From: a virus | Direction: 5' to 3' (one strand) | Virus record (IMG/VR): IMGVR_UViG_3300045004_000088 | Location: 64,001 to 128,000 of that record | DNA: 64,000 nt | Part shown: positions 4,537 through 63,790 of the stretch, piece by piece | Numbering within the stretch: the first letter of the stretch is position 1 | Layout of the letters: the number at the start of each line of letters is the position of its first letter | Position numbers and translations under genes: made by a program | Notes under the pieces: model-generated | What the model was told of the DNA's origin: nothing | What the model saw: the letters and a program-made list of their open reading frames with translations, nothing else | Database searches by the model: none

Positions 4537-4570
4537 GATCGAAAGACCTCAAAACGAAAGGGTGAAAGAC

Positions 4571-34137: not shown

Positions 34138-34444
34138 GAAGACGAAGTTCCAACTGACTCTCGAATCGCTCGGCTTCAACACCTACACCGCGTACCTCAG
34201 ATCCGACCACTGGACGGATTTCAAGAAGAAGTATTTCGACAAGCACGAAAAGGTCTGCTTCTGTTGTGGTGAAGACGCACGCGACCTTCACCACACGACC
34301 TACGAACACCTCGGAAGCGAACTTCAAAAAGACGTGAAGCCCCTCTGTCGGAAGTGCCACAAGAAGGTCCACCGGATGGTGAAGAGACGCCGCGCCCTGC
34401 TCGGCGAAGCTCACGAAGTCCTGAAAGCCACTTCCAAACGCTGA
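34094..34444 (+). CDS. HNH endonuclease
   Basis: CFCCGEDARDLHHTTYEHLGSELQKDVKPLCRKCHKKVH is an HNH motif (C-x2-C...HH...N...C-x2-C-H...H). A TTG start at 34094 sits 4 nt after AAGGAG. Confidence 0.6.
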   Translation: MSKRTPKKRKKHKRKKTKFQLTLESLGFNTYTAYLRSDHWTDFKKKYFDKHEKVCFCCGEDARDLHHTTYEHLGSELQKDVKPLCRKCHKKVHRMVKRRRALLGEAHEVLKATSKR

Positions 34445-34491
34445 AATCATCTGTGCTGGATAGATACCCACAAACACCTCAGTGGGGAACC

Positions 34492-35259
34492 ATGCACAAA
34501 ATCAAGCGATACGGTTGGAAACGCGGACTCCCGAAATACGGCGTTCCGAGGTTTGAAGCCCCGATGACCGCCGGGCCGCTCCCCAAGTACGTTGATCTCA
34601 CGTCCCAAATGCCCCCGGTCTACGACCAGGGCGAACTCGGCTCATGCACGGCCAACGCCGCTGCCGCCCTCGCCCAGTTCCTGAACATGAGGGAAGGTTA
34701 CAAGCCCTACACCCCGTCGCGGCTCGCCATCTACTACTGGGAACGAGTCATCGAGCGGACGGTTCACGAAGACGCTGGAGCCTCGCTCACGTCGGCCGCA
34801 CACGTTCTCGCTACCAACGGCGCACCCAACGAAACACTCTGGCCGTACAAGATCGACAAGTTCGCCGTCGCGCCGCCTGAGAGCGTGGTAGCGAACGGCA
34901 AGCAGCACATCGTCACCAAGCCGCTCAAGGTCAAGCAGAACATGGACGACATCCGGGCGTGTCTCGCGGCCGGATACCCAATCATGTTCGGCTTCGTCGT
35001 CTACGACTCGTTCGAGAGCGAAGAGGTCGGCAAGACCGGATTGTTGTCAATGCCCAGAGACGGGGAACAACTACTGGGTGGTCACGCCGTCGTCGCGGTC
35101 GGGTACGATGACACCACCAAACTCATCAAGGTACGCAACTCGTGGGGACCGAAATGGGGATGGAAAGGACACTTCAAGATGCCCTATTCCTACGTCCAAG
35201 ACCCCGATCTTACAGACGACCTGTGGACCGCACATTACATCACCGGCTTCAAAGGATGA
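34492..35259 (+). CDS. papain-like cysteine peptidase (C1 family)
   Basis: QGELGSCTANAAAA carries the catalytic Cys in a QGxCGSCWAF-like block. GGHAVVAVGYDD carries His. NSWGPKWGWKGHF carries Asn in the NSWG..WG..GY block. ATG at 34492. Confidence 0.75.
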   Translation: MHKIKRYGWKRGLPKYGVPRFEAPMTAGPLPKYVDLTSQMPPVYDQGELGSCTANAAAALAQFLNMREGYKPYTPSRLAIYYWERVIERTVHEDAGASLTSAAHVLATNGAPNETLWPYKIDKFAVAPPESVVANGKQHIVTKPLKVKQNMDDIRACLAAGYPIMFGFVVYDSFESEEVGKTGLLSMPRDGEQLLGGHAVVAVGYDDTTKLIKVRNSWGPKWGWKGHFKMPYSYVQDPDLTDDLWTAHYITGFKG

Positions 35260-36549: not shown

Positions 36550-36746
36550 AAGAAAGCACTTTGAAAACGCACTTCAAGGAAAAGAAAACCCTTGAACGAA
36601 TGATCGAAAGGTTCGGGAAAGCGGAAACAGCCAAGCGGTTGGCTTGGCTGCATGATTGCGATGAACGAAAGGTTGGGTCGTTAGTAAAGCAATTCTTGGC
36701 CGGGGATCAGCCGAAAAGCGGTTTCCAGCCGGCGGGCCAGCGGTAA
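36546..36746 (+). CDS. hypothetical small protein
   Basis: MKESTLKTHFKEKK..., about 66 aa. The end overlaps the convergent GT2 gene. Confidence 0.25.
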   Translation: MKESTLKTHFKEKKTLERMIERFGKAETAKRLAWLHDCDERKVGSLVKQFLAGDQPKSGFQPAGQR

Positions 36747-37414
36747 ATCTTCGCCGCCTTCTTGAGAGCGTCCATGTCGATCCGCTTCTTACCCATAACG
36801 CGGATTCGTTCGACGTGGTGATCTCGGTCCCAAGTGTTACTGCCGTGGAACGTGCGGCAGTAACACGTCCCGCCCTCCACAATGTGCAGCATGTTCTGCA
36901 ACTTCAATTCCTTCTTCAACACCGTGTCCTCACCCTTTGACGCGGGCGGGTAGAACTTGCCGGCGCGACGATCAAGGAACAACGTCCCCTCGATCCCGTT
37001 CGGGTCCGCGACCCACGCCACTTCGTTCGTATCGCAGAAATAGTGCAGTTGTTCCTTCAGGACGACGGCCGGGTATTCGCCGTCGTGATGGCCCTTGTAC
37101 TGCTCACTGATCCGCGTCGGCCCGTACCAGTCGTCATCGTCCCACTGGATCGTCAAGTCGCTCGGTGAATACTCCAGAGCGAGATTCCGAAGTTCTCCGA
37201 GTTTCCGTTTCCGGGCCGAGTGAAGCACGGAAACTTCACGGTCGTCACCCATGAGTTTCTTCAAAGCCTCATGCTCTTTGACATCCCCGTCGTTGACGAT
37301 GAGCAAATGCTTATTGGGGTAGTCCTGCTTCTTGAAGTATTTGTAGCTCTGCTTGACCAGCGGAATCCTTCCCGTGGTCACCATCAGAGCGGTGATCATC
37401 GGGTAGTGCTTCAT
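36707..37414 (-). CDS. glycosyltransferase family 2
   Basis: N-terminal MITALMVTTGRIPLVKQSYKYFKKQDYPNKHLLIVNDGD is a typical GT2 start (I(T/S)..M.T.NR...L......Q.Y...EL.IVDDGS). Confidence 0.6.
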   Translation of the reverse strand: MKHYPMITALMVTTGRIPLVKQSYKYFKKQDYPNKHLLIVNDGDVKEHEALKKLMGDDREVSVLHSARKRKLGELRNLALEYSPSDLTIQWDDDDWYGPTRISEQYKGHHDGEYPAVVLKEQLHYFCDTNEVAWVADPNGIEGTLFLDRRAGKFYPPASKGEDTVLKKELKLQNMLHIVEGGTCYCRTFHGSNTWDRDHHVERIRVMGKKRIDMDALKKAAKIYRWPAGWKPLFG

Positions 37415-39984: not shown

Positions 39985-41009
39985 TACTTGGCTGCGTCCT
40001 CGGTCAGATCGACCATCCGACCCTTTTTGCCGCAGTGGTGCGGGCTGTAAGCCAACCCCACGTCCAAGTTGACGGCGCGGCCGTCGCAGTATTCCATCGG
40101 CAGGTGTTCGCCGAACAGACGAGTATGTCCGTGGCAGACCTTCTTCGCCCCGCCGAAATACTCCAGATGGTGCGGGATGATCTCTTCACCGGAATCCCAG
40201 TAGCGGCCCGAAGTCGTCACGCCCCAGAACTTGTAGCCCGGAGAGATCGAAGACGAGAGCAGTCCGAGGGTCAGGGCGTTGTTCGCCTTCTGGATCGGGT
40301 CCGTCTTGTCGCTGTCATCAATGGACTCGAAGAACTTGTACACGCGGTGCGAATCACAGTGTTGAAACAGGACGCCGTCCTTGAGGTACATGGCGGGCCA
40401 GCCGACCGCCCACATCATCAAGTCGGGCGACTCCATGAACTTGACGAGGTCTTCAAGGTTCATGCCGTTCGCGAGCATGTCGGCGATCTGATCCTTGAAG
40501 ACGCGGAGTTCGCCGGCTTCATCGGGGAGATCGGACTCGTCAATACCTTCGGGGGTGTCGGGGTTGGCGGCGTAGTTCGCGCAGGCGTTCATGACGGCAC
40601 CCATCCGCCAGTGCTTCTTCTCGCGGTACAGGGTGCCGCCGTCGTTGGACTCCTTGAACGTGTCCTCGCGTGAGCCGTTGTTGATCTTGGAGATCAACTC
40701 CCTGAGCTTCGGTCGCCGGACCAAGAATATGGCGCAGTTGAGGAAGCCGATGTCGTGGTTGCCCATCGTGACAACGAGGTCGCCACCGGCGGCTTCGGCC
40801 TGCTTGTGGAGGTTGTAGGCTTTCTCGATGGTTTCGTAGCCGTGCGGCCCACGGTCGGTGAGATCGCCGGTGAGAACGAGTGTGCCGTCCTCGGAAGCCC
40901 AGTCGCCGTTGGAGTCAACGACACCCTTGTCTTCGAGGTTGAGCATCATTTCGCCGAGCATGCCGTGGATGTCGCCGATCCCGAACAATTTTTTTGTCTT
41001 CATGCGCAC
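39975..41009 (-). CDS. calcineurin-like metallophosphoesterase (Ser/Thr phosphatase / diadenosine tetraphosphatase-like)
   Basis: GIGDIHGML, LVLTGDLTDRGPHG and TMGNHD are the canonical metallophosphatase motifs I-III. Confidence 0.7.
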   Translation of the reverse strand: MRMKTKKLFGIGDIHGMLGEMMLNLEDKGVVDSNGDWASEDGTLVLTGDLTDRGPHGYETIEKAYNLHKQAEAAGGDLVVTMGNHDIGFLNCAIFLVRRPKLRELISKINNGSREDTFKESNDGGTLYREKKHWRMGAVMNACANYAANPDTPEGIDESDLPDEAGELRVFKDQIADMLANGMNLEDLVKFMESPDLMMWAVGWPAMYLKDGVLFQHCDSHRVYKFFESIDDSDKTDPIQKANNALTLGLLSSSISPGYKFWGVTTSGRYWDSGEEIIPHHLEYFGGAKKVCHGHTRLFGEHLPMEYCDGRAVNLDVGLAYSPHHCGKKGRMVDLTEDAAKYKK

Positions 41010-41614
41010 CTTTCTATCTTATACCTCATACACTTAGGCACAAACGGTTCAACTAAAGGAAGGAACTTCTCTATCTCTGTCATCGACACCAGTCGGATCG
41101 CCTTCTGATTTATCCTGAAGTCGAGATCGAACTTATCCTTAAAAAACCTGATCATGGTCTGACGTTCTGCGTCCGAGAAACACTGAGTAGATATGGTCAG
41201 ATGCTTTGTGTCAGAAGTCCAATACAGGTTGCCGTCGTCACAGTACCAGATGGCGATAGCTTCAGGCGTCAGTGCTGTCAGTAGCTCCATCGTCACTATT
41301 TTCTTGTCTTCTTTGCAAAATTGTTCATACAAAGCATTGAAGCCAGGATGCGCCTTCAGACAGGCGGTGAAAGAGGAGTATGTCTTGCCTGTTCTCTTGT
41401 CAAATCGCGACCTCTCAAATGGCGTCCAATCAAGTCCGACCTGTTCTGCCTTCCAAACCGCGTAGTCTTTTTGTTCAGCACCATGCTCCCACCTGATGGA
41501 TCTATTTTTTTGTCGAACTGCCATTTTGGGGAAGAACGCATCGCCAAGTAGCGTTCCCATTAACAGATCCGCCTGTCGGTCGCCTATGGCGTGGAGGCGT
41601 TGTTTTTTGTTCAT
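41000..41614 (-). mobile_element. free-standing LAGLIDADG homing endonuclease
   Basis: LLMGTLLGDA and IAIWYCDDGN blocks. Paralogous to 853..1710. Confidence 0.55.
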
Positions 41615-41703
41615 TTTGGTCGCTTTCTGACGTGTCCCTTAATGAGTATACGCCTAGCAAGAAGAAGAATTTCTGGTATCATACGGTGAAGGGGGAATTT
41701 TCC

Positions 41704-42231
41704 ATGAAACTCGAAAAGGTCATCAGCGGCGGGCAGAACGGCGTCGATCAGGCCGCGCTCCGAGCCGCCAAGTTCCTCGAAATTCCGACCGGCGGCTGGA
41801 TGCCCAACAGATGGATGACTTTGGACGGACCCCGCCCGGAGTTCGAGGAACTGTACGGGATGAAGGAGTGCTACGCCGGGTACAGGGCCAGAACCGAGGC
41901 AAACGTCATCGACGGGGACGCCACCCTGATCTTCGCGGCGGATTTCAAGTCCCCCGGAGAAATATGTACGTTCAGGGCGATCTCCAAGTTTCAAAAACCC
42001 TTCTTCAAGGTCCACGTTGACGACAACTTGATCGAGAAACTCGAAGAGGGGTTGGCGTGGCTGTCTTGGACCGAGGGCAAGACCCTGAACGTGGCCGGCA
42101 ACAGCGAGAACACCTCGTCGGGCATCGGCGAAAAGGCCGAGCAGTTTCTCACCGAACTATTTAGATGGTATGTGCGTCGTCCCGACATAAATAAAGCATG
42201 CACGAAGACCGAACCTCCGTTGACGCACTGA
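41704..42231 (+). CDS. SLOG-superfamily Rossmann protein (MoCo-carrier/LOG/DprA-like, PF12694-like)
   Basis: VISGGQNGVDQAALRAAKFLEIPTGGWMPNR...YRARTEANVIDGDATLIF matches the SGGQTGVDRAAL...GGW.P.GR...Y..RTE.NV.DSDGTLI signature. AGGGGGA precedes the ATG. Confidence 0.5.
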   Translation: MKLEKVISGGQNGVDQAALRAAKFLEIPTGGWMPNRWMTLDGPRPEFEELYGMKECYAGYRARTEANVIDGDATLIFAADFKSPGEICTFRAISKFQKPFFKVHVDDNLIEKLEEGLAWLSWTEGKTLNVAGNSENTSSGIGEKAEQFLTELFRWYVRRPDINKACTKTEPPLTH

Positions 42232-45006: not shown

Positions 45007-45564
45007 TCAGATGTACTTCCTGATGCGATAGGGATTCGCCTTGTCCAGCAGGTACTTGGGGAAACACGGGGTAACCATCTTCAACAATTTCTTGGCCGAC
45101 TCGCCCTCGAACACCGCGATCTTCTTCTTCTCGTAACACGGATACCCCACCTCGTTGAAATACCGGATCGCGACTTGATGATCGACCAGATTGGCGAGTC
45201 GAATGTAAACGCGGTTGCCGCAGATCCCGCCCTTGTCCAAAAACCAAGTGGCGATCCCGTCGCACTTCAACACGTCGAGCCACTTCATGGTGACCGCCTT
45301 GCGGCCATCGGCGTAACAGAGATCGCGGAACTCGTTCCAGATCTCGTGAGAACAAGACTCCCAAGTCTTGTTCTCAAAACCGCAAGGATCACGCGCGTAT
45401 TGTTCGAGGTGCTTACACTTGACTTTGAACCAGTTGAAGTCGTCCGTGGACCTCATGTACAACGAATAGTTCTTGCCCTTCGGGTGCTTTCGCACACACG
45501 AAGTTCCCAAGATGGTTCCCATCACGACCTGTCGCTGGTATTCGTATAGCTGAAATGAACGCAT
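45007..45564 (-). mobile_element. free-standing LAGLIDADG homing endonuclease (degenerate)
   Basis: VMGTILGTSC and IATWFLDKGG blocks, arranged as in 853..1710 and 41000..41614. Confidence 0.45.
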
Positions 45565-45677: not shown

Positions 45678-46013
45678 ATGGGTGCAACATCTGTAACCGG
45701 CCGTGGTAACGGCAGTGCAGACGGAATGAATAAGGGCAGTTCGCGGTCAACTTTGGGTGTTGACCACTTGATCGGCCCGCGCGTCGTCAATGCCGGTGTG
45801 GTGACGATGTCGGCTTCGACCAAAGACGTTGACTTCCCGACACTGTCGGGCGTGGTCGGCGACTACAGCGTTCAACTGACCGCTTCCAACTCGACGGCTG
45901 TCTTCGTTACGGATTTCACCGTTGATGGCTTCACCATCAACGGTGCTTCCGGCCAGACGATCTACTGGTCGCTGTTCAAGAACGGTCTGTCCGAGAGCGA
46001 CGTGCCGAACTAA
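45678..46013 (+). CDS. small S/T/G-rich protein, possibly virion-associated
   Basis: AAGGAGGA precedes the ATG at 45678. Two hairpin terminators follow the gene. Confidence 0.4.
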   Translation: MGATSVTGRGNGSADGMNKGSSRSTLGVDHLIGPRVVNAGVVTMSASTKDVDFPTLSGVVGDYSVQLTASNSTAVFVTDFTVDGFTINGASGQTIYWSLFKNGLSESDVPN

Positions 46014-46100
46014 ATGAAACAACCGACGAGGGCGTGCCTCGTCGGTCAGAAGGGTACGCTTTACATCGACGCAAAGCGTGGAAACGTCTCATCCTTCGGC

Positions 46101-46136
46101 AAACCACGGGTTCACGCCCGTGGTTTGTTTTTTTGG
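46101..46136 (+). terminator. rho-independent terminator
   Basis: Stem aaaccacggg / cccgtggttt with loop ttcacg, followed by gttttttt. A second hairpin lies upstream at 46023..46045 (ccgacgagg gcgtg cctcgtcgg). Confidence 0.7.
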
Positions 46137-46158: not shown

Positions 46159-46674
46159 TCAGAAAATCGCCCCGGACTCGCCGAGGGTTTTGAAAAGGGC
46201 CATCAGGTGTTTGCACATGCCCGACATCTCTGCCGGATTCACAGCCGCGCCGCTCCCGTCGTATTTCTTTCTCTTGTTTCCAAAAAGTGAACCGTCAACC
46301 CAGTCGTAGTAGTTGAACCGCCACTGGAAGTCCGGGCAATTGCACCTCAGCATCAAATCCGTTCCGCCCGACTCGAACCGCTCGAATGCGTACCGCTTGT
46401 CGTCTGCGACGATCTCGAACAGCCCGGTTCCGGGGCGACCGTAGTTGACGCCCTTGAACAAGATCATGGGGCGGTAGTCCGTTCCCTTGACCGTATTGTG
46501 TGCCTGTGCGGAAATGAAGAGGGTCTTTACTCCTAGATATGGTGTCCACTCCAGTTGGTCGATCTCGATTTGATCAACGACGTGCTGGCGGTAGCGGGTT
46601 TTCGGGAACGCCCTGACGCTACTGTCGTGGAGTTCGGCTTGGGTGCTTTCGGCGAGCCACCGGCTGAAATTCAT
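46159..46674 (-). CDS. SWIM zinc-finger protein
   Basis: ATG at 46674 (MNFSRWL...). The C-terminal RCNCPDFQWRF...MCKHLMALF fits the SWIM pattern C-x-C-x(n)-C-x-H. Confidence 0.5.
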   Translation of the reverse strand: MNFSRWLAESTQAELHDSSVRAFPKTRYRQHVVDQIEIDQLEWTPYLGVKTLFISAQAHNTVKGTDYRPMILFKGVNYGRPGTGLFEIVADDKRYAFERFESGGTDLMLRCNCPDFQWRFNYYDWVDGSLFGNKRKKYDGSGAAVNPAEMSGMCKHLMALFKTLGESGAIF

Positions 46675-46715
46675 GGAGTGTTTCACAAACCTATCTAGTG
46701 AAACTAAGGTAGAGT

Positions 46716-47042
46716 ATGAGCCAACTTGTTGATGCACAGGGTGTACCATTCGACCTTCCGCCCGCACCGATGGGGGTGGACGGCAAACCGAAGAAGCGGT
46801 TCGAGGTGCGGTTAAATCTCGTCGGGGGCGGGCTTCAAAAAGAAGTCTACATCGACGGCGAAAAACTGGACTGGTCAATCGACATCGCTTCGTTCGTTGA
46901 CGCCCATAGAATGGGATTGAAGTACAAACTCGAAATACAAAAGAGCATTGCACAACACTTCACCAAATCTGTCGGAGAAGTCCTCGGCAGATTCGTGAGT
47001 ATCGCCGAAATCAAAAACGCCATTCAGACCGGGTGGATCTAA
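46716..47042 (+). CDS. hypothetical protein
   Basis: 108 aa. The end overlaps the aminotransferase start (ATGCTCGAC...). Confidence 0.4.
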   Translation: MSQLVDAQGVPFDLPPAPMGVDGKPKKRFEVRLNLVGGGLQKEVYIDGEKLDWSIDIASFVDAHRMGLKYKLEIQKSIAQHFTKSVGEVLGRFVSIAEIKNAIQTGWI

Positions 47043-48334
47043 TGCTCGACCAAATCGCGACCGAAGATGCAGTTGAAATCATCCGGCGTCACACCATCGG
47101 CGACGGATACCCGTTCGTCGTATCGCTCGACAGCCACATGAGCAGGCTCATTGATGAAAAGAACAATGTCTGGTACATCGACTGCGTTTCGCAATACGCC
47201 AGTCAACCTCTCGGCTGGAACCACCCGGCACTGGGGGTGCTTGACAAGGACGCACCCAAACTCATCAAACACAAAATAGCGAATCCAGACTTCTACACGA
47301 AAGAGAAGGCCCGGTTCGTTCGCGACATCGCCGACGTACTGCCGGACTTCAAATACTTCTTCTTCGTAGAGGGCGGCAGCCTCGCGGTCGAAAACGCACT
47401 GAAGGTCGCGTTCGACTGGAAGGCCCAGAAGATCGGTTGCCCGCCGACAATTACTCCAGACTTCGACGTGGTTCACCTGAAGCACGCATTCCACGGTCGG
47501 AGCGGCTACACCCTGTCTTTGACGAACACGACTCCCGACAAAACGATGTGGTTCCCGACGTTCAAGTGGACCCGCGTCGATCCGCCGGCCGTCAACCTGT
47601 ACCCGGACCCGGACGAACAGTTGGCTGTCGAGGAACGGGTGCTGAGGGAGATCTGGCACGCGATGACTTCTCGAACGGTCGCCGCGTTCATCATGGAACC
47701 GATCCAGGGTGAAGGCGGCGACAACTACTTCACCCCGCGATTCTTCAAGATGCTGCGAGAGATGTGCGACGAACTGGAAGTGTTGCTGATTTTTGACGAG
47801 GTGCAAACAGGCGTCGGCATCACCGGAAAGATGTGGGCGTACCAGCACTACGGCGTAGTTCCCGACATCATTTCGTTCGGCAAGAAGACACAAGTCTGTG
47901 GGATTGCGGCCACGGGACGCATCGAAGACGTGAACCACGTCTTCAAGGCGAGTAGCCGGATCAACAGCACTTGGGGCGGCAACATCGTAGACATGGTGAG
48001 GTTCTCGGCGATCAAATACGCCATAGAACAAGAAAACATGCTCGAATCGGTCAACAAGGTTGGAGAACACCTGCGTTCTCGACTGAAAGAAATGCCGCTG
48101 ATCAAAAACGTCCGTGGACTGGGACTGATGGTCGCTTTCGATATGGAAGACGCGGCCCAAAGGGACGCGATGCTCGAAGCAATGGAAAAGAACTACCTGC
48201 TCGCTTTGAAGTGCGGCCCGAAGTCGATCCGACTCAGACCGCACCTGACTTTTTCGTTATCGGACGCCAACACCGCATGTGAAGCCATCTCAAAGGCGAT
48301 CACATGTATCCGGCCTTCGGTTTCGGCGGAATGA
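47033..48334 (+). CDS. class-III PLP-dependent aminotransferase, L-lysine 6-transaminase (LAT)-like
   Basis: LIFDEVQTGVGITGKMWAYQHYGVVPDIISFGKK is the class-III DEVQTGFGRTG...PDI...GK motif including the PLP Lys. N-terminal PFVVSLDSHMSRLIDEKNNVWYIDCVSQYASQPLGWNHPAL resembles LAT-family N-termini. Confidence 0.75.
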   Translation: MDLMLDQIATEDAVEIIRRHTIGDGYPFVVSLDSHMSRLIDEKNNVWYIDCVSQYASQPLGWNHPALGVLDKDAPKLIKHKIANPDFYTKEKARFVRDIADVLPDFKYFFFVEGGSLAVENALKVAFDWKAQKIGCPPTITPDFDVVHLKHAFHGRSGYTLSLTNTTPDKTMWFPTFKWTRVDPPAVNLYPDPDEQLAVEERVLREIWHAMTSRTVAAFIMEPIQGEGGDNYFTPRFFKMLREMCDELEVLLIFDEVQTGVGITGKMWAYQHYGVVPDIISFGKKTQVCGIAATGRIEDVNHVFKASSRINSTWGGNIVDMVRFSAIKYAIEQENMLESVNKVGEHLRSRLKEMPLIKNVRGLGLMVAFDMEDAAQRDAMLEAMEKNYLLALKCGPKSIRLRPHLTFSLSDANTACEAISKAITCIRPSVSAE

Positions 48335-49166
48335 TGCTCTTGAAGAACTCGTCGTCTTGACGCTTCTGAATGTTGTGGTACTCGTTCAAGGCGTCACCGA
48401 TACAAGCTCTCCAGTCATGGAAGTGCTTGGACCAGACGAAGTTCTTGTTGTCTTTACCCGAATTGATGTAACGCTTGATCTCGTCCTCGGCCTGCTTCCA
48501 GTGGGCCTTCTTATCCCACCAGTCGTTACCGTGAAGATCGTCGCCTTTCGACGTGTCACCCCTGCCGTGTGCGGCTTCCTTCTGCTTGCGAATGTGTTCG
48601 GCGCGGCTCGCGACCCACCGGGTCCAGTCGGGCGTACCCTCGACGGGCAGTTTATTCTTCCACTCATCGTGTTCCGCGTCTTGGAGTGGAGTGTGCGGCT
48701 CGTCCATCTTTTCCGCTGGTGGTGTCGCAACGCCGGGCGGCGTTTCGCGGCTCAGTTGACGACGGGACTTGCCCATGTCGGCGAGCGACTGAGACACGTC
48801 TTCTTCGCTAATCTCGCCAAGTTCGTGTTCGAGTTCGGAAAGGCTCTTTTCAACGCGGGTGAGCGTTTCGTCAATCTTGTCGAACCGCTTCGGGCCGTAG
48901 ATTTCGCGAAGCACGTTTCTCAGTGTGGACGTAACGTCACCGCCGCCGCTCCTCTGTTGGCCGAGGTGCTGCGGTTCGCTCATTGCCTTCTTGAAACTGT
49001 GGAAGGCACTCATCATCTGCTGGCCCGGTTTCGAGATCGCTGCCAGAAAACTTTGGATGAGCTTGACGCCCTTTTCGTGGAACTTGGCGGCATCACCGCT
49101 TTCGTGAACGTAGGTGCGGACGCTCACCGCTTCTTTGAGTGGGTACAAGGTGAAGTTCTTTCTCAT
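48300..49166 (-). CDS. hypothetical charged protein
   Basis: 288 aa, E/K/D-rich with Trp pairs (NDWWDKKAHWKQ). Confidence 0.35.
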   Translation of the reverse strand: MRKNFTLYPLKEAVSVRTYVHESGDAAKFHEKGVKLIQSFLAAISKPGQQMMSAFHSFKKAMSEPQHLGQQRSGGGDVTSTLRNVLREIYGPKRFDKIDETLTRVEKSLSELEHELGEISEEDVSQSLADMGKSRRQLSRETPPGVATPPAEKMDEPHTPLQDAEHDEWKNKLPVEGTPDWTRWVASRAEHIRKQKEAAHGRGDTSKGDDLHGNDWWDKKAHWKQAEDEIKRYINSGKDNKNFVWSKHFHDWRACIGDALNEYHNIQKRQDDEFFKSIIPPKPKAGYM

Positions 49167-49978
49167 CGAGTCTTCCTTTTCTTCGGTTGCGGTACGCCCG
49201 CAAGAATCAAGGCTTCGGCGAACACGTCGCCTCTGTGTACTGTGTGCGACGGATAATATTTCTCAACGGGAGTTGACCCCCCGCCGTGTTCCGATCCGTC
49301 AGCGGCAGGGGTTGCCGGTGTAGCAGGAGTCGCAGGGGTTGCCGGTGTAGCAGGAGTCGCCGGTGCAGCAGCACCACGCTCGGCTTCGTCTTCGGAGCGA
49401 ACGTCGGCCAATTTACCTTCGAGTTCCTGAACGTAGTTCGGGTCACGCTTGATGGCGTCCGCGACGTGTAGTAACTGGGAGTGCTGGCCGAGTTCTTTCA
49501 TCTTTTCCAAGACGGCGTGTAGCTCGTCGCGGAAATTATCATAGCCGGCGGCGTCACCGCCCTCTTGTTGGTACTCGTCGGGAATGTGGATCGTCTTGAC
49601 GACGCTATCGACTTTGGTGATGGCCTTCACAGCCTTGTCGAAGTTCTTGGCCGCGCCACCGCCACTAAACAGATCGTTGAGCCAACCGAGGAACGAACCG
49701 TGTTGGACTTTGTTGGCCGGACGTGCGCCGGGCTTATCGCCGTCACCACCAGCAGCCGGGGCATCCGGCGAACTTCCGCCGCCTGACGGTGGGTGAGGTT
49801 CGTCTTCGAGGTAAATGGATTCGAGGAGAGGTCCGTAGAGGCCGGGGTATCGAGCCTCTACGAAATCGAGAACGAATTTTTCCGGGTCGTTGGTCTTACG
49901 AGCCAGTTCGTTCGCCAGCTTGCCGACTGACATCAAACTCTTGCGATCCGACAGGTAAGATCTGAATGTGAGCATCAT
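49163..49978 (-). CDS. hypothetical protein with (ATP)n repeat
   Basis: It contains AAPATPATPATPATPATPATPAADG, encoded partly by a perfect 27-nt tandem duplication at 49306..49359. Confidence 0.4.
   Translation of the reverse strand: MMLTFRSYLSDRKSLMSVGKLANELARKTNDPEKFVLDFVEARYPGLYGPLLESIYLEDEPHPPSGGGSSPDAPAAGGDGDKPGARPANKVQHGSFLGWLNDLFSGGGAAKNFDKAVKAITKVDSVVKTIHIPDEYQQEGGDAAGYDNFRDELHAVLEKMKELGQHSQLLHVADAIKRDPNYVQELEGKLADVRSEDEAERGAAAPATPATPATPATPATPATPAADGSEHGGGSTPVEKYYPSHTVHRGDVFAEALILAGVPQPKKRKTR
49306..49359. repeat. perfect 2x27-nt tandem repeat
   Basis: caggggttgccggtgtagcaggagtcg occurs twice in tandem, coding TPATPATPA on the minus strand. Confidence 0.8.
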
Positions 49979-50847
49979 TCCCCTTGCGTTATTTCCTCCC
50001 AGTCTATCGGCTCGTACTTCAACTGGACGACCGGGAGCTTCGGTACTTCTGACTTGGAGTTATATACGAAGCTCAGGGTGTTATTTTGCTCATTGTCCAG
50101 AACCTTGACGGTTCCAATCGGGATGCAGAAAGAAATCCCCGTCACCGGGAACGGCTCGCCCTGGAACCGTGTGATCTTGATGGCCTGCATCAGACCGATC
50201 AGTTTGTTTTTGTAGTAAGCCGGCCCGCCGCTGTCGCCAAACACCGTCATCATGTTGGTTCGGTACACGTCGTTGGGGTGCGGACGAACCCTGCCCTTCA
50301 GCCCCGTGATCTGGCCCTTGTCGAACCGTGGGTCTTCGCCGGCACCACAGCCGACGTGCAGGATCTCGTTACCCATCGAGAGACGAGTCTCGAAGTCCAT
50401 TGTCGCGACGTGGACCGGATGGTTCGTAACGAAGACGCAGATCGCGATGTCGTACTTGTAGGAATAGTGATAGACGACGAGAGGGTTCTGTTCCCACTCT
50501 ATGAACTTCGTGCCATCGGCTTCATAAACGGCTAGGTCGGCCGTGTAATTCTGGCCGGGAATCACGCAGTGCGCACAGGTGAGCATCACGTTGACGTACT
50601 GATTGGCCTTTTTGTTTGAAGGAACTGCTTCTGAACGGATTACGACGCCGGTTCCGAATTGAGGTCTTTTGGTGTTTACGACACGGACGGCTGGGTAGAT
50701 GACGTTCTTGTGAAGGGCTTCATCGAAGTCTCGGACTACGGCACGCGGGGCAGGGGCTTGCTCCACGGGTTTGGGAAGTGCTTGTGAGAACGTGACGCTG
50801 CCCAGTGCTAGGGCCAGGAACGTGGCCCCTAAGATGCGAGTGATCAT
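49975..50847 (-). CDS. secreted trypsin-like serine protease (S1 family)
   Basis: N-terminal MITRILGATFLALALGSVTFSQA is a signal peptide. LTCAHCV carries His in the TAAHC motif. GDSGGPAYY is the catalytic Ser motif GDSGGP. Confidence 0.7.
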   Translation of the reverse strand: MITRILGATFLALALGSVTFSQALPKPVEQAPAPRAVVRDFDEALHKNVIYPAVRVVNTKRPQFGTGVVIRSEAVPSNKKANQYVNVMLTCAHCVIPGQNYTADLAVYEADGTKFIEWEQNPLVVYHYSYKYDIAICVFVTNHPVHVATMDFETRLSMGNEILHVGCGAGEDPRFDKGQITGLKGRVRPHPNDVYRTNMMTVFGDSGGPAYYKNKLIGLMQAIKITRFQGEPFPVTGISFCIPIGTVKVLDNEQNNTLSFVYNSKSEVPKLPVVQLKYEPIDWEEITQGE

Positions 50848-54755: not shown

Positions 54756-55433
54756 TTAACCGCGTTGAATGTCGGCGAGGTGATCCTCGGTTCGACGCTT
54801 CTGGAACGTAGCGACACCGTGATCGGTCTTGAACGTCAGACCACGCAAGTCGCCGTTCTTGAACAACTGTTTCATCTGAGCAGGTACGCCGCCGTACCAC
54901 GGGTGTTCGAGACACCAGAGGTCGTGGATGCAGATGATCCCGCCCGGCGTCACTCGCGGGAACAGGGTCAACAGTTCGTTGTACCGCTCTTTCAGTTCCG
55001 TGTCGAGCCAGAGGAAATCGTAAGTCAAATCCGGGTGCATGCCCGCAAAGAACTCGGTGGTAGTGGTAGTCACAACCGTCGCGAACGAACTCAGACCCAT
55101 CGCCGCCAGTTTGTCTTTGGCGCGACTGGCGACCGTTCCGTCTTTCTCAATGGTCGTAAGGTGGCCGAAACCGTTGTCGCGGAGGGCCAGTGCCATGTAC
55201 TGAGCCGAGACGCCGATGTTGGTGCCGGTTTCCAGAATCGAAACCGGCTTAACCATCCTGACCAAACCGTAAAGGAACTCGCCCTCTTCGATGGCGATCC
55301 CGGTAGGGTCTTGCATGTCTTGGAAGTCGGAGTGTGACAGCATGCTGTCGCGGCTGACGGGTCCGTACTTTTCCTTGTGAGAAAGGATCTTCTTGTGCGG
55401 ATCGAGTTCTAGCAACTTGTCGGTGGCGTTCAT
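54756..55433 (-). CDS. class I SAM-dependent (O-)methyltransferase, family-3 OMT-like
   Basis: VSILETGTNIGVSAQYMALAL is the LE.GT..G.S SAM-binding motif. GGIICIHD is motif post-II. Confidence 0.6.
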   Translation of the reverse strand: MNATDKLLELDPHKKILSHKEKYGPVSRDSMLSHSDFQDMQDPTGIAIEEGEFLYGLVRMVKPVSILETGTNIGVSAQYMALALRDNGFGHLTTIEKDGTVASRAKDKLAAMGLSSFATVVTTTTTEFFAGMHPDLTYDFLWLDTELKERYNELLTLFPRVTPGGIICIHDLWCLEHPWYGGVPAQMKQLFKNGDLRGLTFKTDHGVATFQKRRTEDHLADIQRG

Positions 55434-56119
55434 TGTATCCCTTTGTTGACAAAAGCGAACAACCGAAGTGGTTCTTGGTGTTGGTAGCAGAATTCGGCCG
55501 ACACGTCCTCAAAGCCCTCGAACTCTTTCCTGAAATCATCGAACGTGCGTTCGTCCCGCTGATGGAATTCGCCGACTATGTACTTGGTCTTCGCCAAAGT
55601 TCGCTTGGCTTTCGCCAAAAACCATTCGCCACCTTCACAGTCGGTTTTCAAAAGGTGGATTCTCTCGTAGCCGCTCATCAAGTTGTCCAAATCAACGCGG
55701 GCCACAGCAACCTCGGAGCAATTCTCCAGAGGGCGAGGTTCTGCAACGAAACGGCGTCTGAAGCCCCAGTCGTCGTTGCGTGAGAACCAGAAGATCTTGT
55801 TGCACCCCAACGCTCCTTCGATCACCGTGATCGCGTTGCCGGCGTTGTTCAAAGCGATGTTGTGTCGCAGGATCTCGATGTTCTCTGGGAGCGGTTCGAT
55901 GGCGACACAGACCATGCCCAACTGTGCTGCGAGCAAAGAGGCGTGGCCCGCGTAAGCGCCAACGTCCAAGAAGACTTCGCCGGCTTTGGCGAGCCGGCGA
56001 ATGTTGTACTCGTCCGAATCGATGGCGTCACGGCCGATGATCGCGGTCGCGATGTTGGTGTCGGTGCTGTTGGGTCGAACGGCCGACAGCACACCTTTGA
56101 AATTGATGACTTCGTTCAA
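55430..56119 (-). CDS. FkbM-family methyltransferase
   Basis: VFLDVGAYAGHASL matches DVGAN.G..S. LLKTDCEGGEW matches the FkbM KIDVEGAE block. Confidence 0.6.
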   Translation of the reverse strand: MNEVINFKGVLSAVRPNSTDTNIATAIIGRDAIDSDEYNIRRLAKAGEVFLDVGAYAGHASLLAAQLGMVCVAIEPLPENIEILRHNIALNNAGNAITVIEGALGCNKIFWFSRNDDWGFRRRFVAEPRPLENCSEVAVARVDLDNLMSGYERIHLLKTDCEGGEWFLAKAKRTLAKTKYIVGEFHQRDERTFDDFRKEFEGFEDVSAEFCYQHQEPLRLFAFVNKGIQ

Positions 56120-57197: not shown

Positions 57198-58010
57198 CTA
57201 CTCCTTGAAACCACCGTGTGGTTTTGCCAATGCCGCTTCCAAAGACATGCCCGAATTAAGTCTCTTTGAAAGAGTGTGATAGTTTATGTTGTATTCTTTG
57301 GCGATCCTCTTCCTGTCGATCTTTTGCAAAGCGGCAATCAAATCGCCGTCAAACTCTTTCTGAAGTTGCTTGTATGAAACTCCTAGCTTCCTAGCCAAAG
57401 ACTTCAAAGTGAATGGAACACCTTCCCACTTTACGATTACATATTTCGACTTGACATTAGCGGCTTCGGCTACAGACAAACCGTTTCTAAGTTTCTGCCT
57501 GAATGTGGTCTAGTTGACGCCGAAATGGTCTGCCCAATCCTTCGCAGACTTCGACTGACCCTCGTGTTCAAACAACTTAGCTGGATTATGCGGAATGGCT
57601 CCCTGTTTCAATCGAGCCGTCCTCAGTTTTTGTCGCGTTGCCACCGAGTGTGTGAGTCGTCCATCGGCCGGGACCATGACGTTGTATCCTTTGTCGGGGT
57701 CACAGCTTTTCGCCACGTCGATGTGGAAAGTTTCTCTTGCAATTAGATTGTCGGCGGGACAGTTTTCCAACACGCTCATCACGAACACATCGCTGCCGTA
57801 CTTGTTCCAAGCATTTTGGAGGTGCGGGTTATGGTGAGTGCCAAGACGCAAATGACGACGGTGACGATACCATCGAGTCTTGATGTTGACTGCACTGCCG
57901 ACGTAAACTTTGCCGTTAACGCCATTCTCGATTTTGTAAACACCGGACTTGAGGTGGTCGCTGAAGATCTTCAAGCTCACCTCATTATTCTGTTGATGAA
58001 TTCGACCCAC
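57198..58010 (-). pseudogene. GIY-YIG homing endonuclease interrupted by an in-frame TAG
   Basis: The N-terminal ORF (58010..57510) has SGVYKIENGVNGKVYVGSAVNIKTRWYRHRRH, a GIY-YIG core. A TAG at 57510..57512 is followed in the same frame by 10 open codons and a 93-aa ORF with repeated NUMOD1-like helix motifs. The readthrough gives GVN*TTFRQKLRNGLSVAEAA, which mirrors the later GINYHTLSKRLNSGMSLEAAL, so the stop sits where a Tyr is expected. Confidence 0.6.
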
Positions 58011-58897
58011 TCAGGACCGACTTTCTTCACGTCGAACCGTTCTCGGTTTTTCAACGAGTTCTGGTGGGCGATCTCACGAAGGTTCTTGTCAGCCAGTATC
58101 CGGCGGGCGTTGCTGATCATGGCGGGAACTTCGCGGTCCAGATAGAGTGCCATGTTCTCTTCTTCTAGACCGTGGCCGTTGTTGTAACAGACGGTCGGAC
58201 AGCCGGCACACCACGCCTCGATTTGCGACATGATCAGGGCTGCCGGAACGGTGCCGAAAGAGACGAAGCAGGCACTGTCACGGAACCGTTCTCGCATCTG
58301 CGGTTCGGGGATCTCGCCCATCCCGCCGACCTCGTCCGTTTCCTTGCCGGAAAGCATGACGGGTACTTCCTTCTTGAACTGCTTCATCAACTCCCAACCG
58401 CAGCCGTGGCCGCGTTTGTGGATGCTGTTGCAGGTGGCGTAGCAAACGGGGTACTTGCCGGTCCACGGCTCGAAGTCCTCGAAATACTTGCCGAAGTACA
58501 AGAGCTTTTGCTTGTGTTCGGGACAGCCGGCCTCACGATGACGACGGTGGTCCTTGACCGAGTACGGAGCGATGTATGCGTGCGGGTAATCACGCGCCAT
58601 CGCCGAAACAGCCTCGTACTGCCAAGTGTCGGCCTGTCCGAAACTTACGAGGACCACCCGTTTGCCCTTGTCGAGCAAATCTTTCATCACCGCCGCGTAG
58701 TTCGGCACTTGGTGAAGGACGATCAATTGGAAGTCATTGATGTTCGAGTTGGCATCGGTGACGCCGGGTATTTTTGGTCGCTGTTTCGATCCGATGTCCC
58801 AGTCGCCGCCGACCGAATAGCCGAGGTCTTTGAACATTCGGGCGTGGTCGTATTCCAGCGAAGCATGGCAAGATTGCACAAAAAGACGATGACTCAT
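57977..58897 (-). CDS. putative glycosyltransferase (GT-B-like C-terminus)
   Basis: ATG at 58897 after AGGAGG. C-terminal FGTVPAALIMSQIEAWCAGCPTVCYN weakly resembles the GT-B EAMA.G.PV motif. Confidence 0.3.
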   Translation of the reverse strand: MSHRLFVQSCHASLEYDHARMFKDLGYSVGGDWDIGSKQRPKIPGVTDANSNINDFQLIVLHQVPNYAAVMKDLLDKGKRVVLVSFGQADTWQYEAVSAMARDYPHAYIAPYSVKDHRRHREAGCPEHKQKLLYFGKYFEDFEPWTGKYPVCYATCNSIHKRGHGCGWELMKQFKKEVPVMLSGKETDEVGGMGEIPEPQMRERFRDSACFVSFGTVPAALIMSQIEAWCAGCPTVCYNNGHGLEEENMALYLDREVPAMISNARRILADKNLREIAHQNSLKNRERFDVKKVGPEWVEFINRIMR

Positions 58898-58949
58898 GGC
58901 ACCTCCTACTCCTAGTATAGTTAGGCTCGCTATTACAAAACGGAGACAC

Positions 58950-60152
58950 ATGGCCAAAATTGATCTATCCAAAGAATTCTGCTACCTGCCCAACTTCGTT
59001 CGCGAAGACATCCTGATGGCCCAAACTGTCGGCCAGCAGTTCGGGTGGCAGATCCAGAACTTCGACCTCCCTTCAGCTTGGAAGGACACATGCGGCACTG
59101 GCGTCAACGTCGCCGTCCTCGACACCGGGGTCGATTTGACGCACCCGGACCTAATCGAGAACCTGATCGAAGGTTACAACGTCATCAACCCCAAGCTGCC
59201 GCCGACCGATGATAACGGTCACGGTACGCACGTCGCCGGCATCATCGCGGCGTCGAACAACGCAATCGGCGTCGTGGGCGTTTCGCCGTGCGCAAAGATC
59301 ATCCCCATCAAGGTTCTGAACCGGATGGGTGCGGGCAGGATGGATCACGTCATCGAAGGCATCAAAGTCGCTGTTGACAAGGGTGCCGATCTGATCTGCA
59401 TGTCTCTCGGCACCCGCAACCCTCTGGACGAGGTATTGAAGGCGATCAAGAAAGCGGCCGACAGCGGGGTCGTGTGTTTCGTGGCCGCAGGCAACGCCGG
59501 CCGCACGGCACAGCTACTGTATCCCGCCGCGTATGACATGACCATTAGCATCGGTGCCGTGGACGAGAACTCGATGCGAGCGTCGTTCAGTTGCACCGGC
59601 CCCAATCTCGACTTCGTCGCGCCGGGCGTGGACATCTACAGCACCGTGCCTGTTTCGAGCTACGCGGTGATGTCGGGTACTTCTCAGGCCGCTCCGTTTG
59701 CGTGTGGTGTCGGCGCGTTGCTGTTGTCGCACCACCGAATGACCAAGCCGGGGGCCAAGTTCAAGAAAGAAGACTACGTCAAGGCACTGAGCAACAACGC
59801 ACTGACCGTCGAAAACCTCGACGTGAAGTACGCGGAACTGGGTAAGAGATTCTTTCAAGGCTTCGGGATCATCAACCCGGTCAACTTCTTGGACTGGGTC
59901 GAGAACAAGAAAGTCGATTCGGTGGCGCAGACCATCGCCGGTGCTTTGAGCGACGTGGGCATGCTCGATACCACGAAAGCCGACGTGTCGGCTTTGCGTA
60001 AGTTGTCTACGGATTTGAACAAGGCTCTGAAGCAGTTCCCGAAGGTGAATCAGAAGGCGGCGTCGAAGAAGGCGGCGGTTCAGAAAGAGATGATTTCATC
60101 TGCTTTACTACGTCGCGTATCAAAGCAGCCCGCTCATAATCCTCAGCCTTGA
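58950..60152 (+). CDS. subtilisin-like serine protease (S8 family)
   Basis: GTGVNVAVLDTGVD carries the catalytic Asp. HGTHVAGIIAA carries His. MSGTSQAAPFACG carries Ser in the GTSMAxP block. ATG at 58950 after GGAGAC. Confidence 0.75.
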   Translation: MAKIDLSKEFCYLPNFVREDILMAQTVGQQFGWQIQNFDLPSAWKDTCGTGVNVAVLDTGVDLTHPDLIENLIEGYNVINPKLPPTDDNGHGTHVAGIIAASNNAIGVVGVSPCAKIIPIKVLNRMGAGRMDHVIEGIKVAVDKGADLICMSLGTRNPLDEVLKAIKKAADSGVVCFVAAGNAGRTAQLLYPAAYDMTISIGAVDENSMRASFSCTGPNLDFVAPGVDIYSTVPVSSYAVMSGTSQAAPFACGVGALLLSHHRMTKPGAKFKKEDYVKALSNNALTVENLDVKYAELGKRFFQGFGIINPVNFLDWVENKKVDSVAQTIAGALSDVGMLDTTKADVSALRKLSTDLNKALKQFPKVNQKAASKKAAVQKEMISSALLRRVSKQPAHNPQP

Positions 60153-62195: not shown

Positions 62196-63110
62196 ATGGG
62201 AACTACCTTCGGGTGCGACAGCGAGTTCATTTTGACCCTCCACGGCAAGTACAAAAGTGCCGTTCCGGTTTTGCGAGGTACGAGGGACAAACGTCAGCGG
62301 ATCGACGGCGTAGAAATCTTTCACGACAACGTTCTGGCCGAAGTCGCAATCGAGTACAGCAACACTTGGCACCAAGTACGCGGCAGTTTCCATCACGCCT
62401 TGAAGACGCTCGCACGGGCGGTCGATCCCTGTAAGTTGAACTTGTTCGCATCGGCCGACTACCCGCGTTCCGAGCTTACTGACCCGGAAGCAAAAGAGGC
62501 CGGCTGTTCGGAAGAGAAAGACGCCTACACCAGAAGCACGTTGCCGTCTCAGGAAGACAAGATCAAGACGGGAGCATTCCGAACCGCCGGCGCACACATC
62601 CATCTCGGTGGGGACGGCGTTCTACAGAACAGCATCCGATTGAAACTCGTGGTTTACGCGATGGACCTGTTCGTGGCGGTGCCGTCTTTGTTCCTAGACG
62701 ACAACATTTTCGCCCGCGAGCGGCGGGCGATGTACGGTCGGGCGGGCAGCTACCGGGAGAAACCATACGGGCTGGAGTACCGCGTCCTGGGTCCGTTCTG
62801 GTTGAGATCCCCTTCTACGGCCGAACTGTTTTACAACTTGTCGATGTTCGCGTTGGACTTTGTCGAGTCGGGCAAGTTCGACAGGTTCTGGAGCATTGAC
62901 GAGAAGAAGCTGTTCGACGGCAAGAAAGACGCCTACCAGTGTCACGGTTACAACAAGGATCTGTTGATCGACACGATCAACACCTACGACATGGTAGAAG
63001 CGGAGAAGTTCTTGGAGTTCATCTCGCACTTCTTGCCGGCGCAACTGGTAAGAGATTTCGAGCGTGAACGCGAGAGCGAGCCGGACCTCTACACGTCGTG
63101 GGACATTTGA
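62196..63110 (+). CDS. hypothetical protein
   Basis: 304 aa. GGGAGG precedes the ATG. No motif securely recognised. Confidence 0.4.
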   Translation: MGTTFGCDSEFILTLHGKYKSAVPVLRGTRDKRQRIDGVEIFHDNVLAEVAIEYSNTWHQVRGSFHHALKTLARAVDPCKLNLFASADYPRSELTDPEAKEAGCSEEKDAYTRSTLPSQEDKIKTGAFRTAGAHIHLGGDGVLQNSIRLKLVVYAMDLFVAVPSLFLDDNIFARERRAMYGRAGSYREKPYGLEYRVLGPFWLRSPSTAELFYNLSMFALDFVESGKFDRFWSIDEKKLFDGKKDAYQCHGYNKDLLIDTINTYDMVEAEKFLEFISHFLPAQLVRDFERERESEPDLYTSWDI

Positions 63111-63790
63111 TCTCTGACCTTGCGGCAGATCGGCCGGACATCAACCTTGCGACACTTCTGGCACTGCCATTTTTGATCGAGGGACGCGAAGGCTCGTACT
63201 TCAAGTACGAGCCTCGTTTTGTGAATGTACGAACGGCGACCGCACTCGTTGCACAAGCTCGCCGTGTGGTTGGCCTTCTTGCCGTTTTGTTGGGGCTTGG
63301 CCGTCTTGATGTCGCGGTAGTGCGAGTAGAGCAGGTTGACGAGGGCGGTTGGCATCGGCGGGGCGGGGAACGTCGATTTCTTGAGCCACTCGTAGACCTT
63401 GCCGCTCTTGTGGACGCTCGGCGGAACGACCGACTGGTGACGCCGACCCCGAAACTCGATGCCGTCGAACTTGCAGATGGTAATGTTCGGATTCGGCGAG
63501 AGGAACAGATGGTGGCAGGACTTGTTGCTCTTGAACATCGGGTGCGGGCAGTGCCGCGTAAGATCGAAGATCATCTCGTTGGCTTCTTCGGTGTCCCCCT
63601 CAACGTCCATGACGGTGCCGAGCAAAAATCCCATGTTGGCGTCGGGCATCTGATCAAAGGCGGCGCGATACTTGTCGGCAGACCAATCAACTTGCCAGTC
63701 TTTGAAGACGGGAATCTTGCTTCCGGGGTACAAGGCGATGGGGTTGAAACCACAGGTCAGGTACGCTTCAAAGTAATTCGCGATGTCCAT
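63089..63790 (-). CDS. Prim-Pol (bifunctional primase/polymerase N-terminal domain) protein with zinc fingers
   Basis: YPGSKIPVFKDW and GFLLGTVMDVEGD match the Prim-Pol P.SK.P..GW and vDvD motifs. The C-terminus has CNECG...CQKCRKVD. Confidence 0.5.
   Translation of the reverse strand: MDIANYFEAYLTCGFNPIALYPGSKIPVFKDWQVDWSADKYRAAFDQMPDANMGFLLGTVMDVEGDTEEANEMIFDLTRHCPHPMFKSNKSCHHLFLSPNPNITICKFDGIEFRGRRHQSVVPPSVHKSGKVYEWLKKSTFPAPPMPTALVNLLYSHYRDIKTAKPQQNGKKANHTASLCNECGRRSYIHKTRLVLEVRAFASLDQKWQCQKCRKVDVRPICRKVRDQMSHDV

Follow-up and report, generated by a model that had tools for sequence, protein, structure and literature searches.

The 64-kb stretch of viral DNA analysed here (the window; positions 64,001 to 128,000 of IMG/VR record IMGVR_UViG_3300045004_000088) carries a gene for a class-III aminotransferase of the L-lysine 6-transaminase (LAT) family, preceded on the same strand by a 108-aa open reading frame (ORF) and, divergently, by the gene of a 171-aa SWIM-like protein. 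We consider it fairly probable that this gene encodes a functional pyridoxal phosphate (PLP)-dependent, 2-oxoglutarate-using omega-aminotransferase of the LAT family carried as an auxiliary metabolic gene (AMG), and we infer its substrate and role from sequence. An earlier note on this DNA had described a LAT-like class-III aminotransferase beside a SWIM-type protein, a description upheld by matches to Pfam, to TIGR03251 and to PDB entry 2CIN and by an invariant CxC...CxH motif.

To define the setting of this gene, coding regions in the window were called from codon usage and Pfam was run on the 78 predicted proteins, each at least 70 aa long. A T4-type large terminase, a Gp20-type portal protein with an intein, an S77 prohead protease and a Gp23 major capsid protein are encoded in the window, and a 475,914-bp contig bears an identical aminotransferase. 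Together these place the locus in a huge T4-like phage, of which the window is the structural module and of which the DNA inspected makes up 64 kb out of 476 kb. This phage is known from metagenomes alone: the locus DNA gave no megablast match to GenBank phages, and a protein search of GenBank phage records returned a single close homologue, from the uncultured 595-kb record LR756511.1 (49% identity).

The aminotransferase ORF listed by the earlier note (47033..48334, plus strand) exists as the maximal reading frame, beginning at a GTG at 47033, and contains the PLP lysine block (FDEVQTGVGITGK...PDIISFGKK), while the CNCPDF...CKHL motif is present in the SWIM-like ORF on the opposite strand; the small ORF, however, which that note had put on the opposite strand, lies on the strand of the aminotransferase. 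The true start is probably the ATG at 47042, since the public gene call is 430 aa long and the stop codon of the upstream ORF overlaps this ATG as TAATG (47040-47044). The product aligns to Pfam Aminotran_3 (PF00202) from profile position 20 to 403 of 403 (E=1.9e-80; 271 bits, cutoff 30.5). Among NCBIfam models it fits TIGR03251 LAT_fam (L-lysine 6-transaminase) best, at 456 bits and more than 260 bits above the runner-up family (195 bits), and the best PDB match is the LAT of Mycobacterium tuberculosis (MtLAT; EC 2.6.1.36, Rv3290c, 2CIN), with 346 bits and 45% identity against 129 bits for the next family.

The active site was compared in an alignment of 120 viral and 81 cellular LAT-family sequences. 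The predicted Schiff-base lysine is K281 (K300 of MtLAT; codon at 47882-47884), which, like D252 (D271 of MtLAT, the Asp that binds the pyridine nitrogen), is invariant in both sets. Thirteen residues have been described for the active site and PLP pocket of MtLAT, with Glu243 acting as a switch: F167, H168, R170, E238, E243, D271, V273, Q274, K300, N328, S329, T330 and R422 (PMC9780415). Among them, R170 binds the substrate carboxylate and R422 binds 2-oxoglutarate. The window protein has all thirteen; across both sets eleven are invariant and the remaining two, V273 and N328, nearly so. MtLAT A129 is a serine in the window protein, at a position that varies in viral and cellular sequences alike. 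Viral and cellular LATs split at only three positions, none among the listed MtLAT residues, although one of them (F423 to L) adjoins R422. Comparison with the 76%-identical orthologue in locus L004 gave a dN/dS of ~0.10, indicative of purifying selection. Given the retained catalytic residues and this ratio, the gene product is best described as an intact, selected LAT-family enzyme, for which we infer lysine as the substrate. It resembles MtLAT in fold and domain length as well.

Phylogenetic inference separates this enzyme from its cellular counterparts. A tree was built from the 120 best metagenomic matches, the 80 best matches from bacterial and archaeal genomes (one genome per species) and MtLAT. 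The 120 metagenomic sequences formed one clade apart from the 80 cellular LATs and MtLAT (neighbour-joining (NJ) bootstrap 100/100), and every member whose gene context was read lies on a phage-like contig. The window protein shares on average 47% and at most 50% identity with the cellular LATs, which share 56% among themselves. Rooting with seven other class-III aminotransferases recovered the LAT family as monophyletic (100/100), the viral clade at 97/100 and the cellular LATs at 74/100; the viral clade is therefore sister to the cellular LATs and not nested in one phylum. On these sequences the aminotransferase belongs to a virus-only LAT clade.

From 71 viral loci with a LAT-family homologue of at least 40% identity, 60 distinct ones (at 97% identity) were scanned with tblastn, and two recurrent architectures emerged, Type A (31 distinct loci, the lineage of the window) and Type B (19 distinct loci). 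Type A loci run in the order LAGLIDADG gene (-), 111-aa gene (+), SWIM-like gene (-), small ORF (+), aminotransferase (+), trypsin-like gene (-), glutamate dehydrogenase (GDH) gene (+) and Dam gene (+), and belong to T4-like phages on contigs that reach 572 kb in IMG/VR and 933 kb in other assemblies. The block is kept in relatives with 45-76% identity. With viral hallmark genes on both sides of the aminotransferase and the block retained in 31 distinct viral loci, the gene has the features of an AMG. The family is a typical cellular metabolic one, and JGI labels the gene simply L-lysine 6-transaminase, so host contamination, chimeric assembly or a recently captured and decaying host gene was also considered. 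This explanation is effectively refuted by synteny and phylogeny: phage genes flank the aminotransferase on both sides in the window, about 30 independent viral contigs, which come from different samples, share the gene order, support for the virus-only clade is 97-100 of 100 replicates, and dN/dS is ~0.1 with all catalytic residues intact.

In 16 of the 27 Type A loci whose downstream sequence reaches at least 5 kb, the aminotransferase is followed at 2.6-4.5 kb by a GDH gene; gene calls place it after the trypsin-like gene in L005, L087 and L092. Its identity comes from the NCBIfam model GdhA_Arch (433 bits, under the cutoff of 750). GDH is present in L001 and L005, both members of the subclade of the window, and absent from L003, L004 and the window, which has lost it; no GDH remnant was detected in the window. 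The GDH of this lineage was not found among GenBank phage records, where the best match was 41.6% identical and the top matches include bacterially annotated records. Cellular LAT loci are organised differently. An aldehyde dehydrogenase (ALDH) gene is adjacent in 37 of 80, as would be expected of the known lat-pcd pair (LAT plus piperideine-6-carboxylate dehydrogenase; lysine to 2-aminoadipate), with these ALDHs as candidate pcd products, and GDH, the SWIM-like gene and the small ORF are nearby in none. The window locus, in contrast, has no adjacent ALDH and carries the coupled 108-aa ORF. The genes that accompany the viral LAT thus encode enzymes of amino-acid catabolism, and with no GDH near any of the 80 cellular LATs we regard the LAT-GDH pairing as a viral arrangement.

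Type B loci come from a phage lineage marked by ThyX, a split PolIII-alpha and sigma-70, and are ordered as glyoxalase-like, ALDH, arginine-dihydrolase-like, aminotransferase, UGDH-N-like and, in some loci, saccharopine-dehydrogenase-like genes. ALDH and the arginine-dihydrolase-like gene (249 bits to NF052232) are present in all 19, overlapping stops and starts mark an operon, and some loci also carry saccharopine-dehydrogenase-like and OCD-family genes. The Type B aminotransferase, 52-54% identical and scoring 467.7 bits against TIGR03251, directly follows the arginine-dihydrolase-like gene. Like the cellular lat-pcd pair, Type B phages thus keep an ALDH in the aminotransferase operon; unlike it, they have the arginine-dihydrolase-like gene between the two. 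The operon resembles a basic-amino-acid pathway carried by a phage. In L090 (7214-13142) it comprises six genes, including a truncated UDP-glucose-dehydrogenase-like gene, with an OCD-family gene 6 kb upstream; the same operon type occurs in 18 further IMG/VR loci, such as L094, L097, L100, L133 and L139.

This second context raises the possibility, which we hold to be unlikely, that the enzyme is mainly an ornithine delta-aminotransferase, leading arginine or ornithine to glutamate-5-semialdehyde/pyrroline-5-carboxylate and glutamate by the same chemistry on another substrate. The product of the arginine-dihydrolase-like gene that directly precedes all 19 Type B homologues would be ornithine, an ALDH gene lies ahead of it, and OCD-family genes are near in some loci; the carboxylate-anchoring Arg and the Glu/Arg switch are, moreover, common to ornithine aminotransferase (PMC4244111). 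The active site, however, agrees with cellular LAT-family enzymes residue for residue, the window protein reaches no more than 154 bits with ornithine aminotransferase models (NCBIfam), and the window and the Type A loci lack an arginine-dihydrolase-like gene. We also considered whether the change of MtLAT V63 to Tyr or Phe in the phage enzymes (Tyr in the window protein) narrows the pocket towards ornithine, by comparison with Tyr85 of ornithine aminotransferase, and rejected it: Phe stands at this position in most sequences of both sets (74 of 81 cellular, 94 of 120 viral), with Val being mainly mycobacterial. Since Phe is usual in cellular LATs too, this position indicates no viral shift in specificity. 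Ornithine aminotransferase shares its fold, the Glu/Arg switch and the logic of the carboxylate-binding Arg with the window enzyme, as do other subgroup-II omega-aminotransferases such as GABA-AT, AcOAT and putrescine AT (PMC4244111), whereas the window protein scores only 129-195 bits against such families and the LAT family is monophyletic against the other class-III outgroup.

Based on the mechanism of MtLAT, we propose that PLP would be bound as a Schiff base on K281 and that the external aldimine would be formed by the epsilon-amine of L-lysine or, possibly, the delta-amine of L-ornithine, with the alpha-carboxylate of the substrate anchored on R153. Since R397 would be shielded by E224, the distal amine alone would react, yielding pyridoxamine phosphate and 2-aminoadipate-6-semialdehyde, the latter cyclising to piperideine-6-carboxylate (P6C). 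E224 would then swing off, and 2-oxoglutarate, held by R397 and R153, would be converted to L-glutamate. In the infected cell, nitrogen from basic amino acids could in this way reach glutamate, which serves as general amino donor. The downstream phage GDH that most related huge phages have could regenerate 2-oxoglutarate and free ammonium and NAD(P)H (transdeamination); since the window has no GDH, that step would in this phage fall to a host enzyme or to a gene in another part of the 476-kb genome. Because the gene partners in related phages are amino-acid-degrading enzymes, the most likely role of the phage aminotransferase would be to reroute host nitrogen metabolism, and decoration of DNA or sugars is unlikely.

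Consumption of 2-oxoglutarate and/or lysine might alternatively act as a signal rather than as nutrition, shifting the nitrogen-status or stringent-response signals of the host in favour of phage replication. Mycobacterial LAT overexpression is reported to change amino-acid pools and alarmone-related persistence (PMC4726150), and the pairing with GDH, an enzyme that also sets the 2-oxoglutarate/glutamate ratio, is virus-specific (0 of 80 cellular loci). We nevertheless regard a signalling role as improbable, given that Type B operons resemble full catabolic pathways and not a single signalling step.

Several observations weigh against the favoured reading, a functional LAT-family aminotransferase carried as an AMG. 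The TIGR03251 score of 456 bits lies below the curated equivalog cutoff of 520.8 and so does not certify the LAT substrate. GDH, ALDH and P6C dehydrogenase are all absent from the 64-kb window, and the gene sits in a virion structural module amid proteases and genes of unknown function, which is unusual for a metabolic gene. With an arginine-dihydrolase-like gene upstream, the Type B context argues for ornithine no less strongly than for lysine. The Type B ALDH was tried as close kin of the cellular LAT-adjacent ALDHs and rejected; it is only 30-36% identical to them and is therefore not called a P6C dehydrogenase. The trees, finally, are NJ only, and the viral set was picked by similarity to the query.

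The virus-only LAT, coupled in huge phages to a private 108-aa protein and usually to a phage GDH, might also form a dedicated phage system in place of a simple nutritional AMG, with its aldehyde product (2-aminoadipate semialdehyde/P6C) or its removal of the amine put to a phage-specific use. We give this little credence. Examples would be the chemical cross-linking or modification of virion components, suggested because the gene lies in the structural module among proteases, the supply of a precursor for the nearby COOH-NH2 ligase, or a rewired 2-oxoglutarate nitrogen signal in the host.

The earlier note had itself proposed a part in phage DNA or glycan modification, the aminotransferase making or tailoring an amine or aldehyde for thymidine-type hypermodification or for a virion glycan or amino-sugar. 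Many glycosyltransferase and methyltransferase genes (GT9, GT1, pyruvyl transferase, GT2, FkbM) do occur in the window and its relatives, a phiEco32-type COOH-NH2 ligase is encoded 14 kb from the aminotransferase, an NDP-sugar epimerase/dehydratase lies ~8.8-8.9 kb downstream in some relatives, and the 64 kb inspected are only a part of the 476-kb genome. However, the Pfam scan of the 78 genes in this window found no thymidylate-synthase-like hydroxymethylase, 5-hmdU DNA kinase (5-HMUDK), aGPT-Pplase or DegT-type sugar aminotransferase, and PF00202, not DegT, is the only Pfam match of the aminotransferase at E<=0.01. The characterised PLP enzymes that take part in hypermodifying thymidine are decarboxylases whose models follow the tryptophan-synthase-beta fold, and their genes adjoin those of 5-HMUDK and aGPT-Pplase transferases, often near a dUMP hydroxymethylase (PMC8989533; PMC13458397); the word 'aminotransferase' does not occur in PMC8989533. 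Thus M6 gp52 and ViI gp226 are phage-encoded and PLP-dependent like the window enzyme, but they are tryptophan-synthase-beta-type decarboxylases that act on DNA-bound amino acids (PMC8989533), whereas the window enzyme is of fold-type I, class III.

The residues that bind the amino-acid alpha-carboxylate and 2-oxoglutarate are, in addition, intact in the window enzyme. Its recurrent partners are the amino-acid catabolic GDH, ALDH and arginine-dihydrolase-like genes, with no nucleotide or sugar enzyme among them, and the sugar genes are neither adjacent to the aminotransferase nor consistently present. From the 64 kb inspected we therefore judge a modification role very unlikely for DNA and glycans alike, and the locus drops off the list of candidate DNA-hypermodification systems. 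The note had set against its own proposal a grouping of the enzyme with host-derived metabolic genes; the partners are indeed metabolic, but the enzyme falls in a virus-only clade and not with host genes. The glycan-type genes of the window are dispersed among its structural genes, which suggests a modification of virion or host-surface glycans that is independent of the aminotransferase.

Enzymes of this kind and viral genes for nitrogen metabolism are already known. GDH has been reported in giant viruses (nucleocytoplasmic large DNA viruses; PMC9270025), which likewise count glutamine synthetase and glutaminase among their nitrogen and amino-acid auxiliary genes, and the nitrogen-assimilation AMGs of phages include the glutamine synthetase and asparagine synthetase of rumen phages (PMC13196213). 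The window gene similarly encodes a central nitrogen metabolism enzyme in a virus. Searches of the available literature library for a phage LAT, the LAT-GDH pair and KEGG K03918 returned no report of a LAT-family aminotransferase or of a LAT-GDH pair in phages. A whole lineage of huge uncultured T4-like phages has kept its own lysine-type aminotransferase over long evolutionary time, most of its members pairing it with their own GDH, while a second phage lineage has put it in a multi-step catabolic operon for basic amino acids. This pattern points to phage control of the node at which lysine or arginine is turned into glutamate and 2-oxoglutarate, a sector of virocell nitrogen metabolism known until now mainly from genes of glutamine and asparagine synthesis. 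The locus offers a directly testable enzyme and a defined gene pair.

Among the immediate neighbours (Table 1), the 108-aa ORF is a more consistent companion of the aminotransferase than the SWIM-like gene, to judge by its translational coupling and its presence directly upstream in 30 of the 31 Type A loci, and the coupled protein may be a partner of the enzyme. Its family counts ~55 representatives, 80-130 aa long; the protein matches nothing in Pfam, PHROG or NCBIfam, and its structural model matches nothing in BFVD.

Table 1. Coordinates of features in the window and of glutamate dehydrogenase genes in related loci (window positions unless a locus is named)
Feature	Position	Strand	Remarks
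LAT-family class-III PLP aminotransferase, 430 aa	47042..48334	+	Pfam, NCBIfam and PDB matches
108-aa ORF	46716..47042	+	Coupled translationally to the aminotransferase via TAATG stop/start overlap
Divergent spacer, 41 bp	46675..46715		Between SWIM-like gene and small ORF
Perfect palindrome GTTTCAC-N11-GTGAAAC	46680-46704		In divergent spacer; unique in window, 0.03 expected by chance
SWIM-like protein, 171 aa (CxC...CxH)	46159..46674	-	Divergent from the small-ORF/aminotransferase pair
Strong terminator-like hairpin pair	46098-46129 (+), 46048-46020 (-), within 46020..46129	+ and -	Stems of 14 and 12 pairs, then T-runs
Conserved 111-aa protein	45678..46013	+	Maximal ORF from 45555; gene calls of 111 aa in L004 and L006
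LAGLIDADG homing endonuclease flanking the block	45007..45564	-	Pfam LAGLIDADG_2, E=2.9e-10
Convergent three-gene unit	48300..50847	-	End overlaps aminotransferase 3' end by 35 nt; kept in close relatives
288-aa protein	48300-49166	-
271-aa protein with PATP repeats, (PAT)n	49163-49978	-
Trypsin-like protease with signal peptide	49975-50847	-	Pfam Trypsin_2
Actin-like protein	4511-5581		Pfam Volactin, E=6e-68
Portal gene with intein	22184-24742		Pfam Intein_splicing inserted ahead of Portal_T4 domain
Circularly permuted YpsA SLOG-family protein	41632-42231		Pfam cpYpsA, E=5e-29
Homing endonucleases: three free-standing LAGLIDADG and one GIY-YIG in 64 kb	853-1710, 41000-41614, 45007-45564, 57510-58010	-
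Three non-prohead proteases: papain-like C1, trypsin-like with signal peptide, subtilase	34354-35259, 49975-50847(-), 58896-60152
phiEco32-type COOH-NH2 ligase adjoining PrimPol	62196-63110(+) and 63089-63790(-)	+ and -	Ligase: PHROG 3815, Pfam PF14395
Glycan-type genes: GT9, GT1, polysaccharide pyruvyl transferase, GT2, Methyltransf_24, FkbM methyltransferase	3262-4239, 24780-25859, 25816-26841(-), 36707-37414(-), 54756-56119(-)
Phage GDH gene, L005	14160-15422
Phage GDH gene, L087	12693-13946
Phage GDH gene, L091	12952-14205
Phage GDH gene, L092	14169-15434

The SWIM-like gene has a likely extent of 171 aa rather than that of the maximal 264-aa ORF, and its product belongs to a compact family of 69 proteins, none of them annotated. 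All 32 homologues compared keep C112-x-C114 and C155-x-H157, which recall the SWIM zinc finger (PF04434), but the Pfam score of 17.4 bits is under the 19.6 cutoff with the CxC half alone aligning, and the spacer of ~40 residues between CxC and CxH is unusually long; only two of the 32 family members have any Pfam SWIM match at E<=0.01, both sub-threshold. In the AlphaFold (AF2) model (pLDDT 81.8) the Cys/His region comes after an N-terminal beta-sheet domain. A PDB search with this model gave no match at E<=0.001; its BFVD matches are small uncharacterised phage proteins (E ~1e-9 to 1e-10) and, with weak similarity, a SWIM-type protein of Achromobacter phage Motura (E=2.5e-4, TM 0.42-0.51).

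These fold matches come from records labelled Siphoviridae and from phage Motura, phages for which a search of GenBank phage records returned no LAT, and the SWIM-like gene itself occurs in 28 of 31 Type A, 0 of 19 Type B and 0 of 80 cellular loci. Since the fold occurs in phages without a LAT match and the gene is absent from Type B, we read its adjacency to the aminotransferase as lineage synteny; no functional link was found. The LAGLIDADG gene is conserved in position in 29 of the 31 Type A loci, and a homologue of the 111-aa protein holds the same relative position in 22. The predicted hairpin pair separates the 111-aa gene from the SWIM-like gene, which ends there.

In the divergent spacer, the palindrome was considered as an operator and rejected, since L004, the closest relative, does not share it. 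A spacer of ~40 bp recurs in several relatives, and a looser TTCAY...(A/C)TATCTA motif common to five relatives could be a candidate promoter element. PADLOC tied no local gene to a defence system, apart from a generic protease-domain match.

Elsewhere in the window, Pfam matches cover several homing endonucleases, proteases, glycosyltransferases and methyltransferases, a Dam methylase, a cpYpsA SLOG protein, the phiEco32-type COOH-NH2 ligase and a PrimPol. The cpYpsA gene is also kept near the aminotransferase block in L003, L006 and L093, and the COOH-NH2 ligase gene likewise accompanies the aminotransferase in L088 (at +10.9 kb) and L093 (at +3.6 kb). In L089 (ENA ERZ25039540 contig_19076, bases 920485-933350 of 933350) the block of LAGLIDADG, 111-aa, SWIM-like, small-ORF and aminotransferase genes stands at the very end of the contig, which could be a concatemer or chimera and which, if a single genome, would represent an exceptionally large phage.

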